From: Eledone cirrhosa
Taxonomy: Eukaryota
Direction of reading: 5' to 3'
DNA: 64,000 nt
NCBI GenBank assembly: GCA_964016885.1
Contig: OZ024742.1
Coordinates: 371,504,001-371,568,000, forward strand
A program made the translations under genes and the position numbers. The notes under the pieces are model-generated. The model searched no databases. It was not told the origin of the DNA and saw only the letters and a list, made by a program, of their open reading frames with translations. Of the stretch, positions 4,049 through 11,834 are shown piece after piece (position 1 is the stretch's first letter; each line of letters starts with the position of its first letter).

Positions 4049-7000
4049 TGATAATCTACCCAATATGTTAACCTCACAGATAATCTACCCAATATGTTAA
4101 CCTCAGTGATAATCTACCCAATATGTTAATCTCAGTGATAATCTACCCAATACGTTAACCTCACTGATAATCTACCCAATATGTTAATCTCAGTGATAAT
4201 CTACCTAATATGTTAACCTCAGTGATAATCTACCCAATACGTTACTCTCAGTGATAATCTACCCAATATGTTAACCTCAGTGATAATCTACCCAATATGT
4301 TAACCTCACTGATAATCTACCCAATATGTTAACCTCACTGATAATCTACCCAATATTTTAATCTCAGTGATAATCTACCCAATATGTTAACCTCACTGAT
4401 AATCTACCCAATATGTTAATCTCAGTGATAATCTACCCAATATGTTAACCTCACTGATAATCTACCCAATATGTTAACCTCTGATAATCTACCCAATATG
4501 TTAACCTCACTGATAATCTACCCAATATGTTAATCTCAGTGATAATCTACCCAATACGTTAACCTCACTGTAATCTACCCAATATGTTAAGCTCAGTGAT
4601 AATCTACCCAATATGTTAACCTCACTGATAATCTACCCAATATTTTAACCTCACTGATAATCTACCCAATATGTTAACCTCACTGATAATCTACCCAATA
4701 TGTTAATCTCAGTGATAATCTACCCAATATGTTAACCTCACTGATAATCTACCCAATACGTTAACCTCACTGATAATCTACCCAATATGTTAACCTCACT
4801 GATAATCTACCCAATATGTTAACCTCACTGATAATCTACCCAATATGTTAATCTCAGTGATAATCTACCCAATATGTTAATCTCAGTGATAATCTACCCA
4901 ATATGTTAACCTCACTGATAATCTACCCAATATGTTAACCTCACTGATAATCTACCCAATATGTTAAGCTCAGTGATAATCTACCCAATATGTTAATCTC
5001 ACTGATAATCTACCCAATATGTTAATCTCAGTGATAATCTACCCAATATGTTAACCTCAGTGATAATCTACCCAATATGTTAACCTGACTGATAATCTAC
5101 CCAATATGTTAACCTCAGTGATAATCTACCCAATATGTTAACCTCAGTGATAATCTACCCAATATGTTAATCTCACTGATAATCTACCCAATATGTTAAC
5201 CTGAGTGATAATCTACCCAATATGTTAATCTCAGTGATAATCTACCCAATATGTTAACCTCACTGATAATCTACCCAATATGTTAACCTCACTGATAATC
5301 TACCCAATATGTTAACCTCACTGATAATCTACCCAATATGTTAACCTCACTGATAATCTACCCAATATGTTAATCTCAGTGATAATCTACCCAATATGTT
5401 AACCTCACTGATAATCTACCCAATATGTTAATCTCAGTGATAATCTACCCAATATGTTAACCTCACTGATAATCTACCCAATATGTTAATCTCAGTGATA
5501 ATCTACCCAATATGTTAACCTCACTGATAATCTACCCAATATGTTAACCTCAGTGATAATCTACCCAATATGTTAACCTCACTGATAATCTACCCAATAT
5601 GTTAACCTCAGTGATAATCTACCCAATATGTTAACCTCACTGATAATCTACCCAATATGTTAATCTCAGTGATAATCTTCCCAATATGTTAACCTCACTG
5701 ATAATCTACCCAATATGTTAACCTCACTGATAATCTACCCAATATGTTAATCTCAGTGATAATCTACCCAAAATGTTAACCTCACTGATAATCTACCCAA
5801 TATGTTAATCTCAGTGATAATCTTCCCAATATGTTAACCTCACTGATAATCTACCCAATATGTTAACCTCACTGATAATCTACCCAATATGTTAACCTCA
5901 CTGATAATCTACCCAATATGTTAACCTCAGTGATAATCTACCCAATATGTTAACCTCAGTGATAATCTACCCAATATGTTAACCTCAGTGATAATCTACC
6001 CAATATGTTAACCTCAGTGATAATCTACCCAATATGTTAACCTCAGTGATAATCTACCCAATATGTTAACCTCACTGATAATCTACCCAATATGTTAATC
6101 TCAGTGATAATCTTCCCAATATGTTAACCTCAGTGATAATCTACCCAATATGTTAACCTCACTGATAATATACCCAATATGTTAACCTCAGTGATAATCT
6201 ACCCAATATGTTAACCTCAGTGATAATCTACCCAATATGTTAACCTCAGTGATAATCTACCCAATATGTTAACCTCAGTGATAATCTACCCAATATGTTA
6301 ACCTCAGTGATAATCTACCCAATATGTTAACCTCAGTGATAATCTACCCAATATGTTAATCTCAGTGATAATCTACCCAATATGTTAACCTCACTGATAA
6401 TCTACCCAATATGTTAATCTCAGTGATAATCTACCCAATATGTTAACCTCACTGATAATCTACCCAATACGTTACTCTCAGTGATAATCTACCCAATATG
6501 TTAACCTCAGTGATAATCTACCCAATATGTTAACCTCACTGATAATCTACCCAATATGTTAACCTCACTGATAATCTACCCAATATTTAAATCTCAGTGA
6601 TAATCTACCCAATATGTTAACCTCACTGATAATCTACCCAATATGTTAATCTCAGTGATAATCTACCCAATATGTTAACCTCACTGATAATCTACCCAAT
6701 ATGTTAATCTCAGTGATAATCTACCCAATATGTTAACCTCACTGATAATCTACCCAATATGTTAATCTCAGTGATAATCTACCCAATATGTTAACCTCAC
6801 TGATAATCTACCCAATATGTTAACCTCACTAATAATCTACCCAATATGTTAACCTCACTGATAATCTACCCAATATGTTAACCTCACTGATAATCTACCC
6901 AATATGTTAACCTCACTGATAATCTACCTAATATGTTAACCTCAGTGATAATCTACCCAATATGTTAACCTCACTGATAATCTACCCAATATGTTAACCT

Positions 7001-10000: not shown

Positions 10001-11834
10001 CCAATATGTTAACCTCAGTGATAATCTACCCAATATGTTAACCTCAGTGATAATCTACCCAATATGTTAACCTCACTGATAATCTACCCAATATGTTAAC
10101 CTCAGTGATAATCTACCCAATATGTTAACCTCAGTGATAATCTACCCAATATGTTAACCTCACTGATAATCTACCCAATATGTTAACCTCAGTGATAATC
10201 TACCCAATATGTTAACCTCAGTGATAATCTACCCAATATGTTAACCTCAGTGATAATCTACCCAATATGTTAACCTCACTGATAATCTACCCAATATGTT
10301 AACCTCAGTGATAATCTACCCAATATGTTAACCTCACTGATAATCTACCCAATATGTTAACCTCAGTGATAATCTACCCAATATGTTAACCTCAGTGATA
10401 ATCTACCCAATATGTTAACCTCACTGATAATCTACCCAATATGTTAACCTCAGTGATAATCTACCCAATATGTTAACCTCAGTGATAATCTACCCAATAT
10501 GTTAACTTCACTGATAATCTACCCAATATGTTAACCTCAGTGATAATCTACCCAATATGTTAACCTCAGTGATAATCTACCCAATATGTTAACTTCACTG
10601 ATAATCTACCCAATATGTTAACCTCAGTGATAATCTACCCAATATGTTAACCCCACTGATAATCTACCCAATATGTTAACCTCACTGATAATCTACCCAA
10701 TATGTTAACCTCAGTGATAATCTACCCAATATGTTAACCTCAGTGATAATCTACCCAATATGTTAACCTCACTGATAATCTACCCAATATGTTAACCTCA
10801 GTGATAATCTACCCAATATGTTAACCTCAGTGATAATCTACCCAATATGTTAACTTCACTGATAATCTACCCAATATGTTAACCTCAGTGATAATCTACC
10901 CAATATGTTAACCTCAGTGATAATCTACCCAATATGTTAACTTCACTGATAATCTACCCAATATGTTAACCTCAGTGATAATCTACCCAATATGTTAACT
11001 TCACTGATAATCTACCCAATATGTTAACCTCAGTGATAATCTACCCAATATGTTAACCTCAGTGATAATCTACCCAATATGTTAACCTCAGTGATAATCT
11101 ACCCAATATGTTAACCTCAGTGATAATCTACCCAATATGTTAACCTCACTGATAATCTACCCAATATGTTAACCTCAGTGATAATCTACCCAATATGTTA
11201 ACCTCAGTGATAATCTACCCAATATGTTAACCCCACTGATAATCTACCCAATATGTTAACCCCACTGATAATCTACCCAATATGTTAACCCCAGTGATAA
11301 TCTACCCAATATGTTAACCCCAGTGATAATCTACCCAATATGTTAACCTCACTGATAATCTACCCAATATGTTAACCTCAGTGATAATCTACCCAATATG
11401 TTAACCTCAGTGATAATCTACCCAATATGTTAACCTCACTGATAATCTACCCAATATGTTAACCTCAGTGATAATCTACCCAATATGTTAACCCCAGTGA
11501 TAATCTACCCAATATGTTAACCTCACTGATAATCTACCCAATATGTTAACCTCACTGATAATCTACCCAATATGTTAACCCCAGTGATAATCTACCCAAT
11601 ATGTTAACCCCAGTGATAATCTACCCAATATGTTAACCCCACTGATAATCTACCCAATATGTTAACCCCACTGATAATCTACCCAATATGTTAACCCCAG
11701 TGATAATCTACCCAATATGTTAACCCCACTGATAATCTACCCAATATGTTAACCCCAGTGATAATCTACCCAATATGTTAACCCCAGTGATAATCTACCC
11801 AATATGTTAACCCCAGTGATAATCTACCCAATAG
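4049..11834 (+). repeat. 29-bp satellite, about 268 copies, in the protease intron
   Basis: Unit tgataatctacccaatatgttaacctca(g/c); uninterrupted for 7.8 kb and ends exactly at the splice acceptor AG. Confidence 0.98.

Follow-up and report, generated by a model that had tools for sequence, protein, structure and literature searches.

Most of intron 4 of a conserved serine protease gene in Eledone cirrhosa is occupied by a 29-bp minisatellite that continues without a spacer to the 3′ splice site. The locus was analyzed in a window of 64,000 nt (the whole stretch of DNA considered here; assembly GCA_964016885.1, contig OZ024742.1, positions 371,504,001–371,568,000 of the forward strand), and window coordinates are used throughout, with negative values upstream of the window. 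The gene is composed of six exons that encode 457 residues with no internal stop, including a CBM14 domain and a trypsin domain (Pfam PF00089). Splice sites were scored with a matrix built from sampled splice sites of the same genome, and slashes mark splice boundaries in the motifs below.

-20086 to -19498, -11999 to -11831 and -263 to -158: exons 1, 2 and 3, located by tblastn comparison with orthologues
1994–2165, + strand: exon 4, also located by tblastn comparison with orthologues; donor AAG/gtaagc, 11.3 bits
2166–11834, + strand: intron 4, predicted by homology; 9,669 nt, phase 1, 80.5% array
3871–4048, - strand: copy of a short interspersed element (SINE), with ~22 nt absent at its head, the gap falling precisely at the array start; tRNA-type head inferred from sequence
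4049–11833, + strand: 29-bp minisatellite, 268.6 copies with 95% matches (Tandem Repeats Finder)
11835–11971, + strand: exon 5, 137 nt; donor AAT/gtaagt, 10.3 bits
13390–13590, + strand: coding part of exon 6, which starts with GDSGG and runs to the stop codon

The gene is single-copy and conserved from chitons to octopods. A search with exon 4 returned 11 proteins, all database annotations, led by Octopus bimaculoides (93%) and Argonauta hians (84%) ‘serine protease 30’ and followed by gastropod and chiton sequences. Exon 5 has a single close copy in the genome, the next matches being 40–44% identical, and no second copy of the locus occurs among 1,796 contigs. A metagenome scan with exon 5 gave 410 pattern matches, none of which was confirmed. 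Within the 251-residue protease domain, private changes number 2 on the Eledone lineage, 4 in O. bimaculoides and 15 in Argonauta. The exon 4–exon 5 junction at 2165/11835, which had been proposed from the sequence in a first-pass annotation of this window, agrees with the orthologues: it gives an invariant loop length in all 10 aligned mollusc proteins, the Eledone protein included. Skipping of exon 5 would shift the reading frame ahead of the catalytic GDSGG.

The array divides into 263 regular units and four irregular intervals and includes at least 36 unit types. The regular units end mostly in G (144) or C (118). What separates the two main unit types is the central base of a TCA-G/C-TGA segment, so they are reverse complements of each other across 7 bases. 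The first-pass estimate of about 268 copies is borne out, as is the direct contact with the exon: a closing partial unit extends to 11833, and the sequence departs from the repeat with the G of 11834. Two of its generalizations are too strong. The statement that every unit holds TTAAC gives way to a count of 232 TTAAC and 31 TTAAT in 268 units, and the AG of the terminal unit is not unique, as an internal unit also ends in CCAATAG. The array contains 152 AG dinucleotides, of which 145 are CAG, in line with the many CAG decoys originally noted.

Variants are unevenly distributed along the array. Of 7,627 array bases, 23 (0.3%) are rare variants. A CCCCA variant is found in 14 of the 33 units at the exon end, including the last three full units, and in only 2 of the remaining 230, indicating that array turnover extends to the acceptor itself. 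G-type units account for 21 of the last 33, and the last three full units all bear CAG. Decoys have thus not been purged near the exon, as would be expected under drift.

The acceptor of exon 5 and its decoys

The sites that bear on the choice of the exon 5 acceptor are the following.

8551–8557, + strand: internal unit with CCAATAG, AG at 8556–8557, followed by GTTAAC (TAG/GTTAAC, within 8551–8563); acceptor -1.6 bits, donor 2.4 bits
11807–11811, + strand: last TTAAC, with candidate branch-point A at 11810, 24 nt before the acceptor
11815–11816, + strand: nearest decoy AG (ccccAG/TG), 18 nt upstream of the acceptor and in frame, 2.2 bits; its use would add VIIYPI
11833–11834, + strand: acceptor AG at the orthologue-conserved position; -4.8 bits, no T-tract

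The acceptor for an exon start at 11835 scores below its own CAG decoys, the array AGs having a median of 2.1 bits and a further site at 11844 scoring -0.5 bits. Base composition points the same way: positions -20 to -5 contain 4 T, compared with a median of 10 in called acceptors, so the original remark that the site has no separate polypyrimidine tract holds. The remaining four acceptors of the gene score 17.2, 8.5, 7.6 and 10.0 bits. Acceptors of paralogous exons score 5.8–18.1 bits in five of six cases, and the sixth (-2.1 bits) is probably miscalled.

The position of the last TTAAC was given correctly in the first-pass annotation, with its A at 11810. A TTAAC at 24 nt is found only for the terminal AG and for the internal AG ending at 8557; the CAG decoys have TTAAC at 35 nt. 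Only two of the 152 array AGs keep the reading frame, giving exon starts at 11817 and 11835, and the other 150 lead to a stop or shift the frame. The nearest decoy CAG (11815–11816) and the CAGs of the last three units had been overlooked in the first reading of the locus.

Uniqueness and origin of the repeat

All 202 exact matches to a 24-mer of the unit in the 3.0-Gb genome lie inside the array, as do all 234 matches to a 19-mer, and a DNA search with 105 array bases found one candidate region in the genome; diverged relatives of the repeat could escape these exact-match and DNA searches. The monomer was thus found at one genomic site, where a dispersed or centromeric satellite family would occupy several, and the earlier assumption that the repeat is not widespread stands. 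No Rfam family matched positions 2100–14000.

The left edge of the array coincides with the interruption of the SINE. This element is abundant, with 179 distinct copies within the 0.89 Mb examined, and 57 of the 60 copies that contain the anchor run on into the head. Two others have small indels, and only the array-flanking copy lacks the head. The edge of the array may have suffered a deletion here, or the element may have inserted in truncated form. In the former case, the right edge of the array may likewise have removed an old T-tract. Derivation of the unit from the SINE head itself is not favored: the likeness is a loose one, seen by eye at the junction, that needs several indels in 18 nt, and it represents at most a possible microhomology.

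The first-pass annotation regarded the array as an amplified 3′ splice signal. The part of this proposal that stands is that the repeat is local and that the array supplies any branch point used by the acceptor, along with many decoys; copying of the old signal is unproven. The unit lacks the acceptor AG, exon bases and a T-tract, and it does not resemble other acceptors in the genome. The 12-nt remainder of the unit matches 60 of 207 other exon starts as well as it matches exon 5, which rules out the unit as a mutated duplicate that spanned the exon boundary. The branch-like motif in the unit is not above chance: when the unit is shuffled 20,000 times, YTRAY appears in 35% of the outcomes, and it occurs in 17 of 50 other arrays sampled in the same genome. 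No unit type scores above 0.5 bits as an acceptor context when placed last.

An indication of the ancestral sequence comes from a chiton-like genomic read-through (P0019, P0020) in which FVFSFNLVVA precedes the equivalent exon. This sequence, which is distant and known as protein only, fits a T-rich ancestral acceptor. We consider it an even bet that the unit arose from a neighboring segment that spread over the old T-tract or deleted it. The origin put forward in the first-pass annotation, in which the unit is an atypical version of the old segment at -30 to -2, falls just short of even; a copied branch-point segment agrees with the uniqueness of the repeat and with its exact right edge.

Tandem arrays at splice sites in this genome and in known systems

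The frequency of such arrangements was estimated from exon matches of the myosin, kinesin, kinase and trypsin families in the same genome. The survey covered 272 of the 323 listed matches (14 long kinase matches and 37 unfetched ones were left out) and yielded 270 distinct matches, with 263 acceptor calls and 267 donor calls; arrays were counted at periods of at least 10. Arrays cover 5.9–7.1% of bases 200–1100 nt upstream of acceptors versus 0.4% of the last 30 nt. Forty of the 263 flanks contain an array, but only one array overlaps an acceptor, and the next nearest end 31 and 42 nt short. Abutment of an array on an acceptor is more than chance. On these base rates, minisatellites are commonplace in introns of this genome, and their presence on an acceptor is rare but recurrent.

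The overlapping case is a true acceptor duplication in a kinesin gene, with a 119-bp unit that contains a pyrimidine tract, the AG and ~16 exon bases. Four near-identical copies of this gene (L066, L063, L061 and L067, on C1636, C22 and C18) contain two to five or more acceptors, and they offer a useful gradation in copy number for addressing splice-site choice in the same way. On the donor side, minisatellites with 33-, 57- and 93-bp units begin 3–11 nt past the GT in a kinesin gene (L142), a trypsin-family gene (L013) and a myosin gene (L148).

Further arrays are present in and around the protease gene. A 26-kb CCA-derived array lies upstream of the gene and a 4.2-kb array of 40-bp units lies in intron 1 (L003–L006 and L002; ~-51300 to -25045 and -18276 to -14071). 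Intron 3 contains 4.9 copies of a 38-bp repeat (1211–1397) with acceptor-like sites of up to 7.8 bits, ~600 nt 5′ of exon 4; the acceptor of that exon reaches 7.6 bits. A 48-bp array at 13782–14834 begins ~190 nt past the stop codon. An opposite-strand relative of this unit lies near the acceptor of a kinesin gene (L219), so the 48-bp family is dispersed.

The closest published comparison is provided by the amphioxus ‘mirage’ minisatellites, described in Adh3, the globin genes BflGb6 and BflGb9, troponin C and PGBD5, where, in the portions of the reports drawn on here, splicing is reported or presumed to be undisturbed (PMC3087553, PMC3902484). As in those accounts, the Eledone array is a locus-specific repeat at the boundary of an intact host gene and places many cryptic signals in the intron. 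Mirage units as described there span the boundary, copy the authentic site and are present in 3–7 copies. The Eledone unit, in contrast, contains no exon bases and ends before the G, its decoys are a different AG, and it is present in ~268 copies; the terminal unit has been homogenized with its neighbors, and the authentic site has no T-tract. Because the unit has AT or AC where the terminal one has AG, it does not span the boundary with a splice dinucleotide and exon bases, and the array falls outside the mirage definition.

Human variable number tandem repeats (VNTRs) at splice donors offer a second comparison. They include the 37-bp repeat of F7 intron 7 and repeats in 6-16, CBS, lamin B2 and PDGF; the part of the report consulted describes use of the exon-proximal sites and silence of most pseudo-sites, apart from leakage in 6-16 and CBS to the one or two sites that follow (PMC1557585). 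The F7 type resembles the Eledone array in that the minisatellite begins at the splice site. As far as that account goes, these VNTRs involve 5′ sites, identical copies and 5–25 units, whereas the Eledone array involves the 3′ region, non-identical and higher-scoring decoys and ten times more units. Human splicing-associated tandem repeats (spl-TRs) in NARS2 and CFTR lie between the branch point and the AG and are reported to change exon inclusion (PMC10078293). The Eledone repeat occupies the same region. The spl-TRs described there differ in being mostly of short period and in having measured length effects; the class is defined by a correlation of repeat length with junction usage. Y-linked genes of Drosophila contain gigantic introns, on the megabase scale, filled with simple satellites. 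The Eledone intron is likewise mostly satellite, but at 9.7 kb it is of ordinary size, and the issue here is the context of the acceptor. Our literature search, mostly outside subscription journals, found no cephalopod study of splice-site arrays.

How exon 5 may be spliced

We favor the view that the array is probably tolerated clutter and that the spliceosome likely passes it by defining exon 5 from the strong downstream donor. The array would have grown by slippage and unequal exchange, with the last units rewritten as well. The branch-like motif closest to the exon (A at 11810) would recruit U2. The AG 5–6 nt behind this A would be passed over for lying too near it, and splicing would use the following AG, at 11833–11834. 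Slips to upstream CAGs would lead to a stop eight codons on and to nonsense-mediated decay, which clears mis-spliced messages. The exception would be 11817, whose use could yield a minor isoform longer by six residues. The length of the array would in itself have little effect, since only the last few units would be within exon-definition range. In mammals, an AG can be passed over if it follows the branch point by less than 12–15 nt (PMC1431707), and pathogenic new AGs sit more than 6 nt behind it (PMC9284458), as stated in the portions of these two papers relied on here. We infer exon definition and scanning from the last branch point from the strong donors, the TTAAC geometry, the bypassed close AG and the precedents of VNTRs and mirages.

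Several observations weigh against this account. At -4.8 bits, the 11835 acceptor scores lower than every one of the 147 internal-exon acceptors in the sample (lowest -2.1, median 11.3) and coincides with the median for 6,535 AGs taken at random from introns. The contrast with the sample is inflated, because the same matrix was trained on the sampled sites and used to choose them. Among 207 good acceptors, just 4 are preceded by an AG within 18 nt. A branch-like CTGAT is present at 26 nt in about 65 decoys, including that at 11758, 76 nt upstream, and the terminal AG is predicted by folding to be more paired than the decoys. The cited scanning rules are mammalian. Finally, with rare variants at 0.3% of bases, the array may be too young for decay of the protein to show.

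An identity as a U12-type intron was rejected. Such introns have no pyrimidine tract and are defined by a 5′ site of the form GTATCCTT and a branch site of the form TCCTTAAC near the AG; the donor gtaagctt and the unit ATGTTAAC do not match these minor-intron motifs. Structural masking of the decoys was also considered. Per 12 units, mixed G/C arrays have a predicted folding energy of -44 kcal/mol and pure arrays -27 and -17 kcal/mol, but mixed arrays fold no more strongly than shuffled-unit arrays (-45 ± 21 kcal/mol), so masking is unsupported.

The low scores could also mean that the gene was crippled by the array not long ago: most transcripts would then be mis-spliced or lack exon 5 and be degraded, and there would have been no time yet for the coding sequence to decay. 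The site lies below every sampled acceptor and below its own decoys, exon 5 skipping shifts the frame, 150 of the 152 AGs are non-productive, and the low load of rare variants suggests youth. Arrays are also depleted ~15-fold in the last 30 nt of introns, showing selection against such arrays near acceptors. We nevertheless regard crippling as unlikely: the gene is single-copy and conserved from chitons to octopods with no excess of changes on this lineage, and the presence of at least 36 unit types with spreading variants indicates that the array has been carried for many generations. It is also rather unlikely that the satellite has wholly replaced the T-tract of an essential, conserved exon and supplies the branch point and possibly the acceptor, so that variant turnover rewrites the splice signal, sets the productive share of the message and can add six residues encoded by the satellite to a protease loop whose length is otherwise constant among molluscs. 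The related possibility that the last CAG (11815–11816) is now the main acceptor, making 18 nt of satellite exonic and placing VIIYPI in a surface loop, is consistent with the fact that 11817 is in frame and scores 2.2 bits against -4.8 bits for 11835. With the TTAAC of the previous unit 35 nt upstream of it, the site is the earliest AG to clear a distance of 12 nt from that motif, and CAG is present in all of the last three units. A main acceptor at 11817 is improbable, however, given the invariant loop length in the 10 aligned mollusc proteins and the identical non-productive decoys at 11788 and 11759, which would compete; protein searches returned none with the six-residue insertion, which is weak evidence.

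In an extended form of the first-pass model, the array is a rheostat in which a copied branch-point segment, through the length of the array or its mix of G- and C-type units and possibly their pairing, sets the productive share of transcripts. The array is local and abuts the AG, true acceptor duplications do occur in the genome (the kinesin copies), mixed arrays fold more stably than pure ones, and human tandem repeats can alter splicing, at least in the examples seen in PMC10078293. The folding is matched by shuffled-unit arrays, though, the branch-like motif is at chance level, and the unit has neither AG nor T-tract, making a rheostat quite improbable. Length tuning, recursive splicing and alternative lariats, all suggested at that stage, gained no support in this analysis. 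Recursive splicing would use TAG/GTTAAC at 8556–8563 as a zero-length exon to remove the intron in two steps, and its AG/GT with TTAAC 24 nt upstream does reproduce the geometry of the terminal acceptor. The recursive splice-site motif is YAG/GTRAG, a strong 3′ site followed by a strong 5′ site, and scores of -1.6 and 2.4 bits do not provide this. A single T-to-G substitution, comparable to other rare variants and confined to 1 of 263 units, accounts for the sequence, and the site would leave the weak terminal acceptor unsolved, so we give recursive splicing hardly any credence. An assembly or haplotype artifact, in which a unique T-rich stretch was lost between the array and the AG or a rare allele was sequenced, would explain away the oddest feature of the locus, the absent T-tract. 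It is very doubtful, as the variant gradient is smooth to the final unit, the exact AG is kept at the junction and the locus has no second copy among the contigs.

Other repeats lie elsewhere in the window. A 53-bp array at 24265–28554 (81 copies) contains a donor-like GTAAGA (6.2 bits) in many units, together with weak acceptor-like sites. Large AT-rich arrays of 43-bp units with an attached 404-bp repeat occupy 39836–52958 and 60423–64000, and a related 410-bp repeat lies in intron 2, which suggests a mobile element that carries the repeat. Two remnants resembling the reverse transcriptase of long interspersed elements were recognized by eye on the + strand at ~17100–18900 and 21000–24000.

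The intron 4 array is most likely neutral clutter of a kind already known in lancelets and humans. Its new aspects are the size of the array, decoys that outscore the true site and the missing T-tract. The locus is a natural experiment in which a conserved acceptor resembles a random intronic AG and lies behind ~145 better-scoring decoys, and it could show how far exon definition and proximity carry mollusc splicing without a T-tract. If the acceptor has in fact moved 18 nt into the satellite, the gene would show directly how satellite DNA can become part of a conserved protein.

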